Shown: positions 5,038 through 61,368 of the stretch, in pieces | How positions within the stretch are numbered: position 1 is the first letter of the stretch | Layout of the letters: every line of letters starts with the position of its first letter | Assembly: GCA_964537315.1 (NCBI GenBank) | Contig: CAZIAP010000001.1 | Coordinates: 314,888-378,887 of the forward strand | DNA from: an uncultured Gammaproteobacteria bacterium | GTDB taxonomy: Bacteria > Patescibacteriota > Microgenomatia > Levybacterales > GWA1-39-11 | Reading direction: 5' to 3' | DNA: 64,000 nt | Notes under the pieces: model-generated | What the model was told of the DNA's origin: nothing | The model's input: the letters and a program-made list of their open reading frames with translations, nothing else | The model's database searches: none | Position numbers and translations under genes: made by a program

Positions 5038-6166
5038 TAGGTTTCATTTTATTAAAATATTCCTTATAAAAAAACGTAAAAGTCATGAGTAAAATGGACA
5101 ACCAAGTTAGTATACTAAATATTTGTATGTATAATGAAAAATCTGCTTTTGTAATCCAAGAAAAATAAGTGATTCCAATATATGACGTTGCAAGCAAAAT
5201 AAATATTCTACTAAAATTTACATGCATAAGAATCAGAAATGGTATTAACCATAAAAACCACTGGACACCAAACCCAAGTGTTAAAGCAAAAAACAAGAGG
5301 CATATTCCAATTACTTCTTTATTAATTGTAATTTTTTGCTTAACAAAAATAAATATTATCCCTAGCAACAACAATCCATATGAGAATCCTTTAATGTAAT
5401 ATCCAAACTCAGTAGGTATTTTTTGGATAATCAACCCCAACCCATAGTTTCCTGATATGCCTCGATATGAATAAATAGTCCACAATATTGATTGAATAGA
5501 TGATGCAAAAAACATATGGTATACCAATACAGACAAAATTGGAAACAGTAGAAGTAAAGGAACATAATAGATCTTGATTCTCTTAATTACAGGAATTGCA
5601 AACAAAATTGGCCAAGTCTTAGTGACTATTGCCAAAGAAGCAAAGATTGCACTATAAAAATTTTTTGAGTTTTCAGTTAAAAAATATGATAGTAAAATTA
5701 GAAATATTGGTATTGAATCAAACTGACCATGAAATGCAACGATAGATGCGCTTATAGGATTAATAGCGTATAAAAATGCTTTTTGTAGATTCTTATAACT
5801 CAATATATATAACATATAAACTACTCCCACATCGAAAATAATGAAAATAGTCTTTAAAAATAGTACATATGAAATATTCAGTTTTTGAATATACATAGCT
5901 ATCGCTTCTAGATATAGAAATACTGGAAAATACGGATGATGTAATGGTGCTACAGTTGGATAGATGTTATATTTCTGAAGTGTCAATTCACCTATTAAAT
6001 GATAAGAATCTAAATCAAAATTCGATATTCCATTTGACAAGAAAACAAATATAAGTCTAACAATAAATGCAAAAATAATTATTTCAATAATGGTTATTTT
6101 AACCTGATGTTTATAGTAATATAAAAACGCAACAAGCAAAAGTGATATAAAAATTATAAACATCAT
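5027..6166 (-). CDS. polytopic membrane protein, GT87/DUF2029-like putative mannosyltransferase
   Basis: 379 aa, about 10 TM helices. The loop motif DSYHLIGELTLQKYNIYP resembles the DUF2029 Y..G.nPY loop. Confidence 0.45.
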   Translation of the reverse strand: MMFIIFISLLLVAFLYYYKHQVKITIIEIIIFAFIVRLIFVFLSNGISNFDLDSYHLIGELTLQKYNIYPTVAPLHHPYFPVFLYLEAIAMYIQKLNISYVLFLKTIFIIFDVGVVYMLYILSYKNLQKAFLYAINPISASIVAFHGQFDSIPIFLILLSYFLTENSKNFYSAIFASLAIVTKTWPILFAIPVIKRIKIYYVPLLLLFPILSVLVYHMFFASSIQSILWTIYSYRGISGNYGLGLIIQKIPTEFGYYIKGFSYGLLLLGIIFIFVKQKITINKEVIGICLLFFALTLGFGVQWFLWLIPFLILMHVNFSRIFILLATSYIGITYFSWITKADFSLYIQIFSILTWLSILLMTFTFFYKEYFNKMKPNEI

Positions 6167-49934: not shown

Positions 49935-50097
49935 TCAAGGCAACTAGTCGTAAGTGGGGGATTAACCAATTAAAGTCTTTTTAAATAAGAGTAATTACAG
50001 GCAAGATGGGGTAATTGAAAAAATTATAATAGTTACAGAAATAGCAGTTCAATGCATAATAATATCAATAAATGCTAATACTGATGATTGAAAAAAA

Positions 50098-50208
50098 GAC
50101 GGTGACAAGAGGGAAATTACTCTGAACATTTAGTCAAATTGTTTGAATACTTTATTCAAAAATTGAACCAAACGCCAGAATTGTTGTAATTACCCTCACT
50201 TCACCGTC
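50098..50208. other. ~110-bp element bounded by 23-nt imperfect inverted repeats (GACGGTGACAAGAGGGAAATTAC ... GTAATTACCCTCACTTCACCGTC) with an internal 7-bp hairpin
   Basis: Arms match at about 18 of 23 positions. Internal TTGAATActtTATTCAA hairpin. Intergenic, with no ORF. Confidence 0.4.
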
Positions 50209-50260
50209 TATATCCTCCTTTAACCAAAAGTAAGGTAAGCAAAAATCAGGTAATTGTTAA

Positions 50261-50897
50261 TTACTTCTTTGGCAAGTCATCTCTTTTCCATAACATGTCC
50301 GTAGAGATTCTCCAATCTGGGACATCTCCCATCCATGCGTTTTCCGCGTTTAGTGAGTTAAAATAAATCACACCTTCAAGCAGCGGGTAGTTACCTAAGA
50401 CACCATAAGCGTCAGCAAGCCATGCTCTTTTATGCTCTGACTCTCCGGCAACTCCATTTCATGAGCAAAACGTACTGAATCATCTGTTCCTTATAACTTT
50501 TTATCACCCTAACATTTTCCCTAATAACCTCGTCGTTTAAGCCGTCCAAGGTATCTTGAATCAGGTTGTCCGGGTTATTGGAAAAAGTAGTAAAGGGCTC
50601 TACTGATACGACAGGAACTCTCTGCTTACTTAATGAGGTATCGATGAACTCATACATACCCTCTGAATCTTCCCAGTCAAAATAATTAATCTCTGCATCA
50701 AGATCAGTTAAATCCAATCCTTTTGTCCAAACATCATAAACACCCAAAAACTGCCTGTCCTCAGGTAAACCTATAATAGGAGCTACCTCTTCCTGGTATT
50801 CAGTTGCTGTATCTGTAGGCTGAACATTCGGTGTGACAGTTGCCTCCATTGTTGAGATAGACTCTGAAGTTTCAGTTATCTCCGGACTGGCAAGCAA
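50261..50897 (-). pseudogene. hypothetical acidic protein disrupted by a +1 frameshift near 50430-50460 (155-aa N-terminal ORF plus about 60 codons of C-terminal coding sequence in the next frame)
   Basis: After the 155-aa ORF stop, the adjacent frame encodes clean protein-like sequence to a TAA at 50261-50263 (AWLADAYGVLGNYPLLEGVIYFNSLNAENAWMGDVPDWRISTDMLWKRDDLPKK) but has no start of its own. The upstream ORF begins at TTG. Confidence 0.4.
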
Positions 50898-53863: not shown

Positions 53864-54856
53864 TTGAAAGCAGAAATAACTAATTTTGATAACAGAGAGT
53901 ATTTATCCCAAGATCTTCAGGTTGAGATTACATCAGGATCAATTAAGAATCGTATAGTAACGGTAGAAACTTCTTATACTCCAAAATTTAGCAATACTAA
54001 GTATAAACAAGGTGACAGACTTCTTATTGGATATATCAATGGAGGCGCTAACAACGAAAATTTTTATGTAATAAGCTATAACCGATCTACCCCCCTTTTA
54101 TTGCTTATAACGATATTTCTTGTTATTTCCGTGCTAGTTGCCAAGAAAAAAAGTATTTACTCACTTTTGGGCATGTCAATGTCAATTCTTATCCTGACAC
54201 TATTTATACTTCCAGCAATTGTTAATGGTTCAAATCCTTTAGTTGTTTCAATACTTGGAATGCTAGTTATGGTTCCTATCTTGTTTTATGTCTCTCATGG
54301 TGTAAATAAAAAAACTACCTCTGCTGTTCTAGGTACAGCAATTACGTTAACACTGACAGCGTTATTGGCTGTCATTTTTGTTAAGCTCATGCGACTTACG
54401 GGACTCACAAACGGTGAGGTAGAAACATTACTCTATCTGAAGGAAGGAAACTTTGATATGCAAGGAGTTTTGCTTGCTGGAATACTTATGGGAGCATTAG
54501 GCGTAATTGATGATGTATCTATGACTCAAGCTTCTGTAGTAGAAGAGTTTCATCGACACGAAAAGACACTATCCAGAAAAGAAATATTTCATAAAGCAAT
54601 GAATGTAGGACGCGATCATATTGCCTCTGTGATTAATACGTTAATTCTTGTATATGTGGGTGGATCACTAACCACACTACTTCTATTTACTGAGTTTCCA
54701 CGCCCAATCAAAGTACTTATGAACAGTGAAGTTGTCCTCATCCCGATTGTAATAGCATTAATTGGAAGTATTGGGTTAATACTTGCAATTCCTTCAACTA
54801 CGCTTTTAGCGATAATGATGACTAAAAGACCAAAAAGACATAAAACAGAGAATTAA
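53864..54856 (+). CDS. YibE/F-family membrane protein; the listed ORF starts at TTG, and the N-terminal TM segment is encoded upstream in the same frame (53717..53791) behind an in-frame TAG
   Basis: The C-terminal 7-TM region has a YibE/F-like hydropathy profile and glycine-rich helices. Upstream, MLSIIKKILPVFLITGVLLISFFQI is followed by TAG at 53792-53794 and the same frame then continues into the ORF. Confidence 0.7.
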   Translation: MKAEITNFDNREYLSQDLQVEITSGSIKNRIVTVETSYTPKFSNTKYKQGDRLLIGYINGGANNENFYVISYNRSTPLLLLITIFLVISVLVAKKKSIYSLLGMSMSILILTLFILPAIVNGSNPLVVSILGMLVMVPILFYVSHGVNKKTTSAVLGTAITLTLTALLAVIFVKLMRLTGLTNGEVETLLYLKEGNFDMQGVLLAGILMGALGVIDDVSMTQASVVEEFHRHEKTLSRKEIFHKAMNVGRDHIASVINTLILVYVGGSLTTLLLFTEFPRPIKVLMNSEVVLIPIVIALIGSIGLILAIPSTTLLAIMMTKRPKRHKTEN

Positions 54857-55077: not shown

Positions 55078-55836
55078 ATGAAACCTGATTATTCCAGACT
55101 TCTTACAAGAGAACAGATTTCAGAGATACTTAGTAAGGCATACGAAAAATCAATAGAAAATCATCAGTCAATTCCAACAATAAAAGAAATAAGAAAATTA
55201 CTTAAAGAAGAAGATTTCTTAATTGATAATGAACTAGTAACTGGTAACCAAGTAGAAAAAAGCATAACGCATCATTTTAAGCAATTAAGAGCAGACCCAA
55301 AGTATAAAAACATCAAATACGTATTCCATATAGCTTTAATTGACTTAGGAATTGCAACAGAAGATGAAATCAATAAAAAAGGACCTCGAAGAAATGAAAG
55401 AAATGGAACTGCAGCAGAATACTATGTAATGGCAGAATTATTATTTAAGGGTTATACACCATCTAAATTACTATACGATGAAGGATTAGATATTTTTGCT
55501 GTAAGGGATGGAAGAGGTTATTACATTCAAGTAAAGCATGTTTCCCTATCAAATGGTAAATTACATGTCGACTCAATTAACTTTATGGACAACTCCTCTT
55601 TCAACCCTGCATTTCTGTTTATGGTGCTTAAATACTTTAAAGGGAAGAAAGAAGTAAAAGAATTGTATATATTCACTAAAAATGATTTGTACAATTTTGT
55701 GGGAAGAACTAGAACCGCAAACTACCATTTCAAAATTTTCCAGCGTAATGGTGAAACATATCTAAAACACGATACACGTGTAGAAGAAAATATTGAAAAA
55801 TATAAAGACTCTTGGGAGGTACTAAATTTATCCTAG
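55078..55836 (+). CDS. hypothetical protein with C-terminal YraN/Hjc-like PD-(D/E)xK nuclease-fold domain
   Basis: GTAAEYYVMAELLFKGYTPSKLLYDEGLDIFAVRDGRGYYIQVKH fits the G.AAE...L...GY...D..A..G...hhQVK pattern of UPF0102/YraN and Hjc. Confidence 0.5.
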   Translation: MKPDYSRLLTREQISEILSKAYEKSIENHQSIPTIKEIRKLLKEEDFLIDNELVTGNQVEKSITHHFKQLRADPKYKNIKYVFHIALIDLGIATEDEINKKGPRRNERNGTAAEYYVMAELLFKGYTPSKLLYDEGLDIFAVRDGRGYYIQVKHVSLSNGKLHVDSINFMDNSSFNPAFLFMVLKYFKGKKEVKELYIFTKNDLYNFVGRTRTANYHFKIFQRNGETYLKHDTRVEENIEKYKDSWEVLNLS

Positions 55837-55946
55837 AAATGTGTTGAGCTAGCTAATCACTATTGACTCTCTTTCTATGTTTAACTATCCACTTAATACT
55901 TTTAATAAAGATTGCTAAGTGCGGGTATTTGCATTAATACTGAATA

Positions 55947-57140
55947 TTAATCTTTGTTTTCATCATCTTCAAAAGACATTTGATTCATTATAGATTCTTT
56001 TATATCATCAATTACAATTACACCCGCTTTACCTTTTGCTTTAAAAATATCGCCATGGACTTCAATAATATTTTGAGATTTCAAACTATCTGCTACAAAA
56101 TTAATTCTTGCTTTAGTTAATTGATGTGAGATAGCTACAAATGGCTTCTTAACTGGTTTTTTATTTATTGCTACAACAGAAAATTGTGCTTTACCGTTAG
56201 AAGAAACTAGGTCAACTATCACATCAACTGTTGCATTACTTGCTTCAATAGTTTCATCATTCGCTTCATCCTCTTTTTTTTCTAAATATGTGATGAAATT
56301 ATCTGGAATGGTCATAACTTCATTGAGTTCAATCTTCTTAAATTTTTTTTGATGGTCAGATAAATTAAAGTCCAAAAAGGGATTACCGTGGCTTGTAATT
56401 GATATCTCATCAATACTTGATTCATATTTTCTTATATATTTTGCTATTCCTATACTTTCTGACAAAAAGCTTTTAATGATTCTTGAGTCAATTTCTTGCT
56501 CCATAGCTTCTTTAGCAAAAGCTTCTTCATTTGTGATTTTAATAGTTAACATTCTTTCAACTGTATCTAGATACTCCCGAATAACCTTGTTTGTAGGCGA
56601 TGGTTCTTCCCATAACATATCCGCTTGCTGTTCTGCTTTTATTGATATTGGAATTATAAAACTACCATTTTGTGTATGATTAAATTCAAAATGTTCAATC
56701 GGTACAAATTTACTCCTCCTAGATGAATAAAAAATTCTGAAACTATTTATATTCTTTTGTGGCACATTATTTGCTACTTCAAATGGTATGGCACTACCTT
56801 TATAGTTACCATTATTTACAATCCTATTAATTAATTTATAGTTATATCCTGAAAGCTGGTTATAGATTTCAATGAAATTTTCATCATTTTCTGGTAATTT
56901 AAGAGTATATAACAAAAGTTTTATATTCTTCTGTTGGTAATATTTATAATTATTCGAATTTTCTCCTTTAGGAAGTATCGTCCATAGGTCACTTTGCTCG
57001 TTAAAGACCCACTTTTCATATTCATTTGTAGATTCGATCCTACTCCAATTTGTCCTTCTAAATGCGTCCTTAAAACTACTTATCTTAATTGGTTCAGTTG
57101 TATTCATATTGCTAAAATAATGTTGTAATTGTATTTTCAT
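55947..57140 (-). CDS. hypothetical protein (397 aa), no recognisable domain; second gene of a two-gene overlapping operon
   Basis: Clean ORF that overlaps the upstream 166-aa gene by 29 nt. Acidic C-terminal tail. Confidence 0.5.
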   Translation of the reverse strand: MKIQLQHYFSNMNTTEPIKISSFKDAFRRTNWSRIESTNEYEKWVFNEQSDLWTILPKGENSNNYKYYQQKNIKLLLYTLKLPENDENFIEIYNQLSGYNYKLINRIVNNGNYKGSAIPFEVANNVPQKNINSFRIFYSSRRSKFVPIEHFEFNHTQNGSFIIPISIKAEQQADMLWEEPSPTNKVIREYLDTVERMLTIKITNEEAFAKEAMEQEIDSRIIKSFLSESIGIAKYIRKYESSIDEISITSHGNPFLDFNLSDHQKKFKKIELNEVMTIPDNFITYLEKKEDEANDETIEASNATVDVIVDLVSSNGKAQFSVVAINKKPVKKPFVAISHQLTKARINFVADSLKSQNIIEVHGDIFKAKGKAGVIVIDDIKESIMNQMSFEDDENKD

Positions 57141-57612
57141 TTAATATGTTCGTTTTAGGTATTTTAATCAACCCAGCTTCAATCCTTTGATCAACCTTGT
57201 AGTAATAGGCACATTTTTTGATCAGGATATGATCATGATTAAGTTCCACCCAAGTTTCATAAGATTCACTTTCAGGCAAACATATCAGGAATATATAAAA
57301 ATTTCCAAAACCTATTGGTTCAATAGACGATGATAAGCGGTATTCTATGTAACTATCTGTTTCTTTAATCATTGTACTGCTTGATACAGACACACTTTTT
57401 AATTGGACTTTTATTTCATGAGCTTCTGACGCGACTGATCGACCTTCTCCAACCACTTTATTCATTATTGCGTAATCAACTCCCAATTCGTCAAGTTCTC
57501 TTACTGATGGATTTATTGTGTAGTTAACTTTTGCGACTAGTGCATATAGATATGCTGTGGATGTTTTTTCTTTTATTCTATTAAGAATATTTGTAACAGG
57601 AACATTATTCAT
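57112..57612 (-). CDS. hypothetical protein with PD-(D/E)xK-like motifs (YraN/DUF4365-like); paralogous to the C-terminal domain of 55078..55836
   Basis: STAYLYALVAKVNY...ELGVDYAIMNKVVGEGRSVASEAHEIKVQLKS has the D...E-x-K core and resembles GTAAEYYVMAELLFKGY...GLDIFAV...YIQVKH. Confidence 0.45.
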   Translation of the reverse strand: MNNVPVTNILNRIKEKTSTAYLYALVAKVNYTINPSVRELDELGVDYAIMNKVVGEGRSVASEAHEIKVQLKSVSVSSSTMIKETDSYIEYRLSSSIEPIGFGNFYIFLICLPESESYETWVELNHDHILIKKCAYYYKVDQRIEAGLIKIPKTNILNENTITTLF

Positions 57613-58224
57613 TGAGTAGCATTATAACAGAAGATTATCTTATTTATACCATATATACAAATAAATAATAAATGAAACTACTGATTATTATTTTCGTATC
57701 AAATTGCATATTAAAACTACTACAAAAATATTCAAATCGATCAGTAACTACTGAAGAAATGACAAATTAATCAAAGGAGGAATAATTGACGAATCTCTTG
57801 TAATCGACGATTTAATCCAAGAAAAACGAATTACTAAAATAGGAATTACCAAAAGTACTACAAGGAAATAACTACTTTATCGTTAATTCACGCTATGAAA
57901 TAATATCCTTATTTGTAGGAAAAACAGCCACACAAAACTTGACACTTTTTAACAAATTTTGAGGCTAATATTTAGAAAGACTGTTAATGTCCTATTCCCA
58001 TATAACCCCACAAAACACTACATTTTTGCTTTATTCATTTGTTATAATTCTTCAGATATCTAGAACACCAGGATTAGGGGTCTGGGGCTTAGAAGGTTAA
58101 TACCTGACGCCGATAGAGGGATTCCCCGTCCTCTCTAGATATCAAATTGTATATCTATTTTCTTCTATTTTTATGAAACCCACTCTTCGGTAAACCCAGG
58201 ATAAACGGGAATGGTTCGACAAGG

Positions 58225-58563
58225 TCATAGGTTTTTATACTGTAAATTTTCTAATGTTTTCTTTAATGCTTGTTTGATATGATCACGACCGAAGCCACTT
58301 TTCAAAAATTTTTCTCTAGCTTTTGCATCACGCTGGTCAGTAAATGACTCGTAGAAAATTAACTTTAACGGTCTGCGGTGCTTTGTAGCACTGACATACC
58401 CCTTTTCATGTTCAATTATTCTTTGATTTAAATTAGTGGTATAGCCTGTATATAACTTGTGATCACGCAGACTAAAGAGAATATATACGTAAAAATTAGA
58501 AGATAAAACGTCTGACGTTTTATTCATTAATAATATAAAATGGGAGAAGAGTAATCGAGTCAA
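58225..58563 (-). CDS. GIY-YIG nuclease family protein
   Basis: YVYILFSLRDHKLYTGYTTNLNQRIIEH contains GIY-YIG motif variants (VYIL...YTGYT). The ~110-aa size is typical of standalone GIY-YIG proteins. Confidence 0.8.
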   Translation of the reverse strand: MTRLLFSHFILLMNKTSDVLSSNFYVYILFSLRDHKLYTGYTTNLNQRIIEHEKGYVSATKHRRPLKLIFYESFTDQRDAKAREKFLKSGFGRDHIKQALKKTLENLQYKNL

Positions 58564-58616
58564 ACTCGATTCACCTTCATCAAACTCTACTCCGGGCGGA
58601 GCCGAGTTTGACTCGG

Positions 58617-58689
58617 TGACCCCACGGGAATTCGAATCCCGGTTTCTGGGATGAGAACCCAGTGTCCTAGGCCTCTAGACGATGGGGCC
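58617..58689 (-). tRNA. tRNA-Glu (anticodon CUC), 73 nt, CCA not encoded
   Basis: Manual fold: acceptor GGCCCCA/TGGGGTC, D-arm GTCT-AGAGGCCTA-GGAC, anticodon arm CTGGG-TTCTCAT-CCCAG (U33, CUC, A37), variable loop AAAC, T-arm CGGGA-TTCGAAT-TCCCG, discriminator A. Confidence 0.85.
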
Positions 58690-58761
58690 GTCAAAAAACT
58701 CTAATATACAAAAGGATTAGAACTTAGAGGTACGAGAATTATATCAAATTCAAATCTTAAA

Positions 58762-58796
58762 TCAAAAAAAGATCTGCGCCGGAGGAGCTGCAGATC
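58762..58796 (-). terminator. rho-independent terminator (GATCTGCAGCTCCTCCGGCGCAGATC hairpin followed by a T7 run on the minus strand)
   Basis: Perfect 7-bp GC-rich stem GATCTGC/GCAGATC, followed on the minus strand by TTTTTTT. Confidence 0.65.
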
Positions 58797-59046
58797 CCGA
58801 CCTGCCTTACGACAGATTTGAATAACAGTTGTTCACGCGATATCTCGCGTGCCTCCGACGCAGGTTCTACCTGGATTAGGACTTATCAGACTTTCGGATT
58901 ACCTTGCGCGTGCAAGGCGCTATGATTTCCCTTCTGCGGTTAAAATACCTCCGTCGTGGACCCAAGTAGAGTATTCGAGGTGTCCTTCGAAAGACCGCAA
59001 CAGGGGAACCGTACCGAAAAGCCACTAGCTATTCCTTCCATTAGAC
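58797..59046 (-). ncRNA. candidate structured non-coding RNA of unknown class (~250-285 nt, GC-rich, between two terminators)
   Basis: No ORF of 60 aa or more on either strand. GC content far above background. A terminator follows the preceding gene at 59047..59088 and a strong terminator sits at 58762..58796. No tmRNA, RNase P or SRP consensus could be recognised by eye. Confidence 0.3.
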
Positions 59047-59088
59047 GAAAAAAGTAGGGGTAAAGCGGTGTACACCGCACTATACCCT
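59047..59088 (-). terminator. terminator-like hairpin (GGGTA..GCGGTGTACACCGC..TACCC) followed by a T6 run on the minus strand, immediately after the stop of 59080..59412
   Basis: 14-bp perfect palindrome GCGGTGTACACCGC at 59065..59078. A minus-strand T-run occupies 59047..59052. Confidence 0.45.
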
Positions 59089-59412
59089 TCTGTTTTGCCG
59101 CAAAGCTCGCTCCTTACTAAAGTCAATAATCTGACTTTGATTACTACGATCACTCGTTTGTGTGTTGCTCAATGAATGTTGAACATACCACGCGCCTGAC
59201 AGAGCGCCAAGTGAAAAGAAAGCTATGCTAACTCCCGGATTATATGCTTTGAACTTCTTTTTGCTAGATCTTTTAGGTAATCTCCTAAAGATTCCCAATC
59301 TCCAACATGTGACCATAGCCAAAAGACATACTACTGCTATAAGCTCAAGAGAGAAATAAAGAGGGAGAGCTATCGTCAAACAAACAGCAAAAACTACTAG
59401 AAACTTCAGCAT
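59080..59412 (-). CDS. small membrane protein (two TM helices), unknown function
   Basis: MLKFLVVFAVCLTIALPLYFSLELIAVVCLLAMVTCW...VSIAFFSLGALSGAWYV. Confidence 0.45.
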   Translation of the reverse strand: MLKFLVVFAVCLTIALPLYFSLELIAVVCLLAMVTCWRLGIFRRLPKRSSKKKFKAYNPGVSIAFFSLGALSGAWYVQHSLSNTQTSDRSNQSQIIDFSKERALRQNRRV

Positions 59413-60010
59413 CGTTTCTTCCCTTCCAGATAGATGTTAAAGATCTGTTGTGCACTTCACAACAAATTACAGTTCACACTCGCTTCATATGCAAGATGTG
59501 AATTGGTTGCCATAAGTATAGTTTGTTAAAAAGTGAGAGTCAATAATAATTAAATTGAGAATAAATGAGGATATTTGTATAACCGGGCGGGGTGGACCCG
59601 CCCGGTGTAAGTGGTCAGAGTCGTCAGATGACGAAGTGTTCCGCATAGATCGCGGAGATTCGTACAAATGACAACCTGTCACTCATGCATCTGCTTTCCA
59701 AGCAGAAATTGCGAAATACCAGGCTAGGCGTTGAGAAGCATACGGAGCTGGTCTCGATCACACGTTAGACAACGACATTTTCGGCAAAAAATGCCGAAAG
59801 CAATCATGTCGTTCAAAACAGAGCTATCGATCTCCAACCCGAACGGACTCTCACGAGTAAGAGAGTCCAGAGTGGTTCGCAATATGCGCGGATTGCGTTC
59901 CCACTTCTTCTCAAGCTTAGCGAAAACATCCTGCAAATCGATCTCACTGTTAATGTGAGACTTCTTCTCGCTGCTTCGTACAACGACAGAGACCTGTGCC
60001 AGCGTCTGAA

Positions 60011-60241
60011 TCATTTTTTCCCCTCCCCCGAGGTTTCAAAAGAACCAAGGCCGATAATGATTTCCTGCATGTATCGAAGGAGTTTTTCAGGATCGTCTTC
60101 GATCCTTACGTTCTCATTGCCATCTTCGGCAAAAGAGATCGTCAACTGATCAGGCTTTACCAATTCAGGCAGCTTCTCATCAGTTGAATTGCCATTTCCT
60201 AAGAAATGGTCGTTCACCGCGCGTTTCCTTTCTGGCTTCAC
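60011..60241 (-). CDS. hypothetical small acidic protein (76 aa), low confidence; lies in a GC-shifted ORF-poor region
   Basis: Protein-like composition (VKPDQLTISFAEDGNENVRIEDDPEKLLRYMQEIIIGLG) but overlapped by ORFs on the opposite strand. Confidence 0.25.
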   Translation of the reverse strand: MKPERKRAVNDHFLGNGNSTDEKLPELVKPDQLTISFAEDGNENVRIEDDPEKLLRYMQEIIIGLGSFETSGEGKK

Positions 60242-60470
60242 TATTAAATATGGATGCCAGAAAGAACCCTTTGTTTCATTACGTCACCCTTCCAGGTAAA
60301 GATGTCAGTAGAGTAAGCGAATGACACTTATTCTACTGACAACGCATAACGGATTGTAAAGACATGCGCACAACTGAACAACAACAGTTGGCACGTTTCA
60401 ACGCTATCGGCTCACGGCATATCCTTTCTCTAAGATCAATGATCTCTGCCTCATCCTGTGATTTATATCA

Positions 60471-60563
60471 CAGACAAAGACCGCCGGAAGAAAAGAGTAA
60501 CTCTCTCCTCTTTCGGCAGTCTTTATAAAGCAGTTTATTGGATTTCGCAATTTTAATGTACTA
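60471..60563. repeat. direct repeat copy A (~95 nt; the homologous copy B is at 61041..61148)
   Basis: The copies share caaagaccgc..gaaaaga..ctcctcttt..cgcag..ttttaatgtacta at about 75% identity. Confidence 0.5.
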
Positions 60564-61040
60564 GATCTCACATTTTTTTACTTTTACAAAAAGTATATTG
60601 GTGTGGGAGCGCATAAGTCGCGCCCCCACTAAAGAAAACAGGAAGTACCTTCATTTGACGATACATTGACCGCCAAGATAATACCTCCTGTCAAGCTGGA
60701 ACCTAATCGGAATGTCCTTTCAATGCATATAGCATTCTGCGTTTTCGATCAATATCACGGTCGCGTGATCTGTGAGGAGCACCATGCTTTCTCTTTAATT
60801 GGTATCGCTTCGCTCGCGACCCCTTCTCTTTTAGTGTCTGAACAGCTTGCATTCGTAACACTTCGAAAAGTGGCTCCATCTCGACGGGCCTCACACCGGA
60901 AATGGAGGTGCCAACAATTGAGAAAGCATAAGATGCTTGCATCGTACTAATCCTCCTACGTTTCGTCGAACTTATTAGGATGTATCCTCAAAAGACTTAG
61001 TTATCCTTTCTACTAGGCCTTTATACATAATCGGGACTTC

Positions 61041-61148
61041 CGACAAACAAAGACCGCGAAAAGAAAAGACAAAAACCTCCTCTTTACGCAGCCCTTGCAA
61101 AAAAACTCCGATTTGAACGGAGTAAATTCCAGTTTTTTAATGTACTAC
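61041..61148. repeat. direct repeat copy B
   Basis: See copy A. Contains the internal hairpin CTCCGatttgaaCGGAG. Confidence 0.5.
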
Positions 61149-61154
61149 TTTTAA

Positions 61155-61220
61155 AAATAAAAAAAGCAACCGTTATTAAGATACAAATTGTCTAAGATCT
61201 TAATATGGTTGCTTTTTAGT
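61155..61220. terminator. bidirectional rho-independent terminator downstream of lon (11-bp stem AAAAAGCAACC/GGTTGCTTTTT with nested TTAAGAT/ATCTTAA)
   Basis: The stem is flanked by A-runs and T-runs on both strands, giving U-tracts in either orientation. Confidence 0.55.
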
Positions 61221-61368
61221 ATACGCTTAAAATAATATCCTGTCAATATACTATAAGGATAATTATTATATGAGTGCCTCTTACAAATTTTAATAAATTT
61301 CTGTAAGTTTAACCGAGATCAAGAAGAAAATTTCTTACGAAGCTGATAAAAACTTAATTTCTTATAGG

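Follow-up and report, generated by a model that had tools for sequence, protein, structure and literature searches.

A two-gene nuclease module near a tRNA-Glu gene

The window analyzed here is a 64,000-nucleotide stretch of contig CAZIAP010000001.1, and our subject is a pair of overlapping minus-strand genes within it, A and B, which lie between a YibE/F gene and a tRNA-Glu gene. An initial annotation, made from the sequence alone, had described this part of the window as a nuclease-rich islet and a candidate defense or mobile module. Every feature that it listed (the ORFs, the tRNA-Glu, YibE/F and GIY-YIG genes) was found where that annotation had placed it. The features, given as open reading frame (ORF) calls unless noted otherwise, are:

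53,864–54,856, plus strand: YibE/F gene (Pfam E = 4e-69)
55,078–55,836, plus strand: ORF for a 252-aa protein, convergent with gene B
55,947–57,140, minus strand: gene B, 397 aa
57,112–57,612, minus strand: gene A, 166 aa, overlapping the B ORF by 29 nt
57,613–58,224: AT-rich non-coding spacer of 612 bp, upstream of gene A
58,225–58,563, minus strand: GIY-YIG ORF (Pfam PF01541, E = 9.3e-16)
58,615–58,689, minus strand: tRNA-Glu gene with anticodon CUC (ARAGORN; Rfam RF00005, 55.8 bits)

Together, A and B constitute a real and conserved two-gene nuclease module that is patchily distributed and tied to defense and mobile genes. In every one of approximately 17 distinct loci, A directly precedes B on the same strand, and the two genes overlap or lie less than 60 nt apart. 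These loci are the ones with upstream sequence, and they were reached from B homologues, from a scan of metagenomes with the B profile and from A homologues. The initial annotation had regarded the 166-aa and 397-aa proteins as a plausible uncharacterized nuclease-effector system. The invariable co-occurrence of their homologues, A and then B, upholds the pair as a conserved module; it is, however, very likely a divergent member of an already catalogued candidate, PDC-M02 of the PADLOC collection.

The true start codon of B is probably Met12 at 57,107, which would give a protein of 386 aa beginning four bases past the stop codon of A, because the homologues begin at this residue and because residues 1–13 are disordered in the predicted structure. 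We propose that A and B form a translationally coupled two-gene operon, the promoter of which presumably lies in the spacer upstream of A. In the spacer promoter-like sites occur only at chance frequency. The initial estimate of about 600 bp of non-coding DNA agrees with the 612 bp found, which hold no ORF longer than 37 aa. A structured RNA or a small gene at this position was considered and rejected, since the ORF, Rfam and folding checks were all empty: the spacer has no Rfam match at E ≤ 1, and its folding z-scores (+1.0 and +1.5) are no better than those of shuffled sequence.

Gene A encodes a DUF4365 domain with an intact catalytic motif

What is the nature of the nuclease? Gene A matches the Pfam family DUF4365 (PF14280) with 25.7 bits against a cut-off of 24.3 (E = 1.3e-5), over profile positions 1–135 of 139, and its residues 12–165 match 16 PDC-M02A models of PADLOC, the best of them with E = 8e-18. 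In the alignment of 11 A homologues, residues Asp41, Asp46, Gln70 and Lys72 are invariant, and Gly44 is present in at least 90% of the sequences. The catalytic motif of A thus reads D41-x2-G44-x-D46 ... Q70-x-K72, which in the A subfamily is one residue longer than the DxGxD...QxK consensus. The family match and the conserved motif residues bear out the PD-(D/E)xK-type core that had been suspected in the 166-aa protein. By its sequence, gene A is a stand-alone DUF4365 (DREN-type) PD-(D/E)xK nuclease domain with its motif intact. The label "YraN/Hjc-like", which had been attached to both the 166-aa and the 252-aa proteins, did not survive: neither protein matches UPF0102 (PF02021) or Hjc (PF01870) at E ≤ 1, and NCBIfam was also empty. 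We therefore reject an assignment to YraN, Hjc or NucS, which finds no profile support in Pfam or NCBIfam. Sequence searches against solved structures with A, or with a profile of A, returned nothing meaningful.

The characterized relatives of A indicate which residues and which state of the domain matter. In SPARDA, mutation of the motif Gln and Lys abolishes activity (PMC10810196), and in EAT16, a toxin of an extracellular contractile injection system, mutation of three of the four DxGxD...QxK residues abolishes activity or toxicity (PMC11297309). The isolated DREN/DUF4365 domain of SPARDA is an inactive monomer, and it becomes a collateral nuclease only once the partner filament forces it into a D2 tetramer (PMC12205087). 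We consider A to be the putative effector of the pair; at 166 aa, it is too short to accommodate a sensor domain as well.

Gene B encodes a rare protein with a predicted OB fold

The B protein has no Pfam, NCBIfam or PHROG family, and its 11 close homologues share no consistent Pfam family. The family is small. It comprises 11 clusters among 5.8 billion, and a profile search recovered 33 representatives among 1.84 billion proteins; the subfamily of B comes almost exclusively from metagenome assemblies. Its most conserved motif is NHTxxGSFIIPIS (residues 154–167), which is also the segment seen by the PDC-M02B profiles of PADLOC.

The confident AlphaFold2 model of B (mean predicted local distance difference test score, pLDDT, 80.8; predicted template modeling score 0.76) suggests three parts, and fold matches to the OB fold and to a HicA-like fold were obtained with it:

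residues 20–79: predicted N-terminal domain, alpha-beta-beta-beta-alpha, HicA/dsRBD-like
residues 86–295: predicted helical middle region
residues 298–382: predicted C-terminal domain, a five-stranded barrel with an inserted helix, OB fold

In the OB barrel, the conserved basic and glycine residues are the KKPF sequence at 331–334 and, within the GD-x-x-K-x-KG loop at 363–370, Gly363, Asp364, Lys367, Lys369 and Gly370. We read these residues as compatible with a putative role in nucleic-acid binding. Foldseek searches with the B model returned pieces of the OB fold only, with nothing at E ≤ 1e-3, so that no solved structure appears to resemble the whole of the modeled protein. The HicA-like fold can be compared with that of TTHA1913, a HicA-family dsRBD-like protein (PDB 1whz; PMC3969222). 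Homology of the B N-terminus to HicA at the level of sequence was rejected (hhalign probability 0.2%). In HicA toxins the catalytic His lies in a G-S-H loop, whereas in B this loop seems to be replaced by S-G-x-Y, as judged from the family alignment only and with no superposition. The N-terminal domain of B would seem to lack the HicA catalytic His and to carry Tyr in its position.

The pair very likely belongs with candidate system PDC-M02

The initial annotation could match this architecture to no named system and found no recognizable domain in the 397-aa protein. Both statements gave way, as the pair very likely falls into PDC-M02. The candidate systems known as PDCs are 145 in number and were proposed by "guilt-by-embedding" in known defense systems (Payne et al., bioRxiv 10.1101/2024.01.29.577857). 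PDC-M02 is the cassette FAM_01850>>FAM_00842; it was counted 894 times (supplementary table 8 of bioRxiv 10.1101/2024.01.29.577857), a count that only one other of the listed multi-gene candidates exceeds. A literature search found no paper that mentions PDC-M02 by name in its main text.

Several lines of evidence connect the pair to this cassette. First, the architecture is the same: the cassette, too, runs A>>B, with a first protein of about 170 aa and a second of about 380 aa. In the window A matches the PDC-M02A profiles and adjoins B on the same strand, in that order, with the 29-nt overlap of the ORF calls. Second, at E ≤ 1, B matches no PADLOC family other than PDC-M02B; the two best of these matches fall on the NHTxxGSFIIPIS motif, and the PDC-M02B models and the B family are similar in protein length. 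Third, relatives of B match PDC-M02B collinearly and more strongly, with E = 7.7e-9 for P0039, 2.6e-7 for P0036 and values within 7.7e-9 to 5.6e-6 for P0032 and P0029 (here, as throughout, these are E-values of the models, without PADLOC's own thresholds). Finally, a distant pair in a metagenome-assembled genome of the Fusobacteriaceae (locus L031) links both families: its A protein matches PDC-M02A with E = 2.3e-19, and its 386-aa partner aligns with the B profile over 341 columns with an hhalign probability of 98.3% (E = 1.8e-14). Homology of B to PDC-M02B is therefore very likely on these profile comparisons, and the B family would represent a divergent branch of PDC-M02B.

Genomic neighborhoods of the pair

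Some of the A-B loci adjoin restriction-modification, DISARM-like or BREX-like genes, as would be expected of a system proposed by guilt-by-embedding. The neighbors that bear on defense or mobility are:

L002: type III restriction-modification genes, a retron-type reverse transcriptase (1e-54) and a GajB-like helicase
L006: a DrmD/BrxH-like SNF2 helicase and an MmeI-type methyltransferase
L023: a Mokosh MkoC/MkoA-like helicase
L029: a mad8/HerA-like ATPase, a helix-turn-helix protein and Fic
L004: a PycTM protein and a serine recombinase
L022: a tyrosine integrase
L031: a phage terminase gene (Terminase_3) nearby

In L023, A is frameshifted into two overlapping ORFs of 87 and 95 aa (positions 1,781–2,292 of that locus) while B is intact; the split reflects either decay of this copy of A or a fault in the assembly.

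The repeated proximity to restriction-modification, DISARM-like or BREX-like genes raises the question of whether the pair might itself be a restriction-like enzyme, in which B would recognize a target (for example, modified or single-stranded DNA) and A would cleave the invader with no suicide of the host. DUF4365 has a restriction-endonuclease fold (PMC10810196, PMC12205087), and the modeled OB fold of B would suit DNA recognition. However, neither the window nor most of the other loci have a methyltransferase coupled to the pair, B has no known modification-reader domain, and the sole characterized DUF4365 nucleases are non-specific collateral nucleases (PMC10810196, PMC12205087). We regard a restriction-like enzyme as improbable.

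The closest relative of the locus that we found, L010, has YibE/F and Lon genes that are 69% and 80% identical, respectively, to those of the window, and it contains neither A nor B nor the 252-aa gene. These three genes are hence not kept in all relatives, whereas it was conservation of the islet in all of them at this position that the initial annotation had named as fatal to its proposal. In view of this absence and of the low G+C content of the islet, we propose that horizontal transfer probably brought the pair into a variable part of a small, low-GC genome; L010 is rearranged, and the exact borders of an insertion therefore cannot be drawn.

A model for the A-B pair

How might the two proteins act together? 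We propose the following sequence of events. First, A would be kept inactive by B. Second, a cue of infection would be sensed through the OB and dsRBD-like domains of B, a nucleic acid such as single-stranded DNA or RNA being the most plausible candidate. Third, B would assemble A into, or release it as, an active oligomer. Fourth, non-specific degradation of DNA by A would halt replication of the phage, and the cell might be sacrificed in the process. In this model B is a putative sensor/regulator or scaffold that switches on the nuclease. That B would license A by assembly or by release is suggested by analogy with SPARDA, where a filament drives the activation of DREN. Taken as a whole, the assignment of the A-B pair to PDC-M02 as a divergent member of a candidate anti-phage system, its organization as an operon and the mechanism just described form a reading that we place slightly on the probable side.

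The likeness to SPARDA is considerable. The effector belongs to the same Pfam family (DUF4365 is DREN) and carries the same catalytic D...QxK residues; both systems are two-gene operons in which the nuclease gene comes first; and, by analogy, the nuclease of both is likely an inactive monomer switched on by its partner. The differences are equally clear. The A-B pair has neither an Argonaute (MID-PIWI) nor APAZ, A consists of the nuclease domain only, and in place of those domains B, which has no Pfam match, offers a predicted HicA-like domain, a helical region and an OB fold. As the pair lacks Argonaute and APAZ, guide-dependent recognition of a target is not expected. Two other DUF4365 nucleases, EAT16 and the integron-cassette protein Divona, the latter a validated single-gene defense protein, share the DxGxD...QxK motif with A; they are single polypeptides with fused extra domains, whereas A stands alone and its partner is encoded by a separate gene.

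We advance a more specific proposal only tentatively, as one that we think somewhat less probable than not: PDC-M02-type pairs would constitute a mechanistically new kind of abortive infection, analogous to SPARDA but independent of Argonaute, in which a stand-alone DREN nuclease is licensed by a previously undescribed sensor of the B type. Within it, and with the same reserve about the two together, the sensor would detect a nucleic-acid intermediate of the phage and nucleate oligomers of the nuclease. If this is true, such an analogue would be at work in a tiny, probably episymbiotic genome resembling those of the Candidate Phyla Radiation, an affinity that we infer solely from the taxa of the YibE/F relatives.

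A number of observations weigh against this account, both in its assignment to PDC-M02 and in its mechanism. B itself matches only three PDC-M02B models, with E-values of 0.0018 to 0.033 over short stretches (the best, E = 0.002, covers about 25 residues), so that the subfamily of B is highly divergent; B probably falls below the calling thresholds of PADLOC, which would probably miss the window locus. Later papers still describe the PDCs as unvalidated, and phage protection by PDC-M02 has the standing of a candidate function only. Searches of phage records, plasmids and viral contigs found no homologue in any of them, and the B family in particular has no match there. The NHTxxGSFIIPIS segment is the sole internal part of the B model with a pLDDT below 50; its low score and its conservation would be in keeping with a segment that stays disordered until a partner or ligand binds. 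We observe directly the identity of the domains, the catalytic motif and the linkage of the two genes, whereas the ligand of B, a contact between A and B, their oligomerization and an abortive outcome would follow purely by analogy. Finally, the neighbors of the pair in the window are housekeeping-type genes, with no defense island, and in L027 and L032 the pair likewise lies beside housekeeping genes, those for EF-G and EF-Tu. Their lineage passes the pair on stably beside core genes, not in a defense island. An association of the homologues with defense or mobile genes, for which the initial annotation had proposed a check, is seen at several loci, which adjoin restriction, DISARM/BREX-like, Mokosh-like or retron genes or recombinases, but not in the window, L027 or L032.

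The two loci with elongation-factor genes come from related genomes and share one position of the pair, upstream of the genes for APH, EF-G and EF-Tu (positions 176–8,065 of L027 and 7,001–14,492 of L032). Such a position among core genes is what one would expect if A and B were a housekeeping repair or recombination factor, with A as a Hjc/YraN-like resolvase and B as its SSB-like OB-fold partner; DUF4365 resembles Holliday-junction resolvases in fold (PMC11297309), and the predicted OB fold of B is SSB-like. However, the family is extremely rare, with 33 representatives among 1.84 billion proteins, and patchily distributed, the pair is absent from the closest relative, A has no YraN or Hjc profile match, and elsewhere the pair is embedded among defense genes. 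We consider a housekeeping function extremely unlikely.

A toxin-antitoxin or addiction module must be weighed as well. Here A would be the toxin and B a proteinaceous antitoxin, and the two would stabilize the DNA segment that carries them with no sensing of phage. The strict coupling of the two genes, with overlapping reading frames, the association of the pair with recombinases and a phage terminase gene, and the predicted presence in B of a fold related to the HicA toxin family all point in this direction, as does the toxicity of the EAT16 DUF4365 domain upon expression in E. coli (PMC11297309). Yet a nuclease-first gene order and a partner of the size of B, about 390 aa, are unusual for a type II antitoxin, no DNA-binding repressor domain is recognizable in B, and the isolated SPARDA DREN domain is inactive, not constitutively toxic (PMC12205087). 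The toxin-antitoxin explanation also overlaps with the defense model, because many toxin-antitoxin-like pairs are abortive-infection systems. In its own right, we judge it unlikely.

Should PDC-M02 truly defend its hosts, as our model supposes, the DUF4365/DREN collateral nuclease would be a reusable effector that can be driven by sensors other than Argonaute, and B would be a sensor of new architecture, without a counterpart among solved structures. Moreover, the B subfamily is largely invisible to the current PADLOC profiles, so that inventories of defense systems in metagenome-derived lineages probably fall short of the true numbers. In practical terms the pair is of modest value at present; its compact 1.7-kb operon and the clear catalytic-site mutants make this catalogued candidate directly testable.

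The neighboring nuclease-like genes and the question of one island

The 252-aa protein encoded convergently with B was thought to be a paralogue of A. Its C-terminal half indeed contains an exact DxGxD...QxK string (D134, G136, D138, Q151 and K153), and an A-family hidden Markov model aligns with it with the QxK motifs in register, although with 4–5 bits only (single-comparison E of about 0.002). BLASTP between the two proteins gives E = 0.51 and hhalign a probability of 0.5%. The resemblance is thus one of the motif string, the comparisons being non-significant or marginal, and recent paralogy of the two proteins was rejected. A distant DUF4365-like fold in the 252-aa protein is plausible from the motif. 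It has no Pfam or PADLOC match, its match to the phage protein family phrog_5018, in the region of the motif, is weak (E = 1.8e-4, residues 108–170), its AlphaFold2 model is unusable (pLDDT 48), and searches of solved structures with the protein or its profile gave nothing meaningful. Its one homologue among 5.8 billion clusters, with 75% identity, is surrounded by RecG, NusB, RNase III and PurH genes in another genome, with no A-B pair. The 252-aa gene is an independent near-orphan neighbor and not a part of the pair.

The GIY-YIG protein is, as had been proposed, a stand-alone nuclease of the small type; residues 24–92 match PF01541 with 58.3 bits against a cut-off of 22.6, and its start is probably the ATG at 58,527, which would give 100 aa. 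In both the window and L010, a GIY-YIG gene lies 50–110 nt downstream of a same-strand tRNA gene, which is tRNA-Glu in the window and tRNA-Gln in L010 (positions 5,415–5,836 of that locus). The L010 copy, about 110 nt downstream of the tRNA gene and adjoining Lon, is 39% identical to that of the window. Since this arrangement recurs in L010, the tRNA/GIY-YIG unit looks resident, not imported, and it may be a conserved unit. An 18-nt inverted repeat (58,551–58,568 and 58,603–58,620, 89% complementary) spans the 3′ end of the tRNA-Glu gene and the start region of the GIY-YIG ORF.

Could the whole 3.5-kb stretch be one mobile island that integrated at tRNA-Glu and whose nucleases cooperate? The G+C content is 0.27–0.32 in the islet (low across 55.0–58.2 kb) against 0.35–0.47 in the flanks, the stretch adjoins the 3′ end of a tRNA gene, and A, B and the 252-aa gene are all absent from L010. 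Nevertheless, there is no integrase or recombinase among the ORFs at 52–61.5 kb, no att-type repeat of the tRNA 3′ end at 54.7–59.2 kb, and no second copy of the 3′ 20-mer of the tRNA-Glu gene in the 64 kb, even with three mismatches. In addition, the 252-aa homologue occurs without the pair, the pair occurs approximately 17 times without the 252-aa gene, and the tRNA/GIY-YIG adjacency is present in L010 without the pair. The single-island explanation is already largely refuted and must be called highly unlikely; integration at tRNA-Glu and the islet as one module, both put forward in the initial annotation, are not borne out, and the nuclease-rich islet is a coincidence of neighbors.

A structured, ORF-free stretch beyond the tRNA-Glu gene

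Finally, we note an unusual 2.7-kb stretch between the tRNA-Glu and Lon genes (58,690–61,368). It contains no ORF longer than 126 codons in any frame or under any of the stop-codon reassignments tried, and an alternative genetic code for it is not supported. Its G+C content is 0.41–0.50 against approximately 0.36 in the genome region, and it has no match in Rfam 15. In 300-nt windows across 59,440–60,640, folding z-scores against dinucleotide shuffles reach −5 to −7 on either strand, the minus strand giving a slightly stronger signal, while 30 control windows elsewhere in the 64 kb have a mean of −0.1 and a standard deviation of 1.4. The stretch holds about ten near-perfect hairpins that differ in sequence, one of them being ACCGGGCGGGGTGGACCCGCCCGGT at 59,582–59,606. 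L010 has no such stretch, with about 400 nt between Lon and its tRNA gene. Such a stretch might give rise to a large structured RNA without coding function; alternatively, it might be a group of palindromic DNA elements lying close together.

Within it, a direct repeat of about 60 nt occurs at 60,470–60,529 and 61,043–61,101, 573 nt apart. Both copies read as long hairpins (AAAGACCGCCGGAAG...CTTTCGGCAGTCTTT), putatively so for the second, which has changes on both arms of its stem. A 110-aa ORF on the minus strand (59,080–59,412), with hydrophobic transmembrane-like segments and no Pfam match, sits exactly where the folding z-score returns to approximately 0, and it may be a real small membrane protein by its sequence. 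Likewise, the sole outlier among the 30 control windows, 50,000–50,299 on the minus strand with a z-score of −4.9, overlaps the intergenic gap at 49,935–50,429 and may be another structured RNA or a cluster of terminators.

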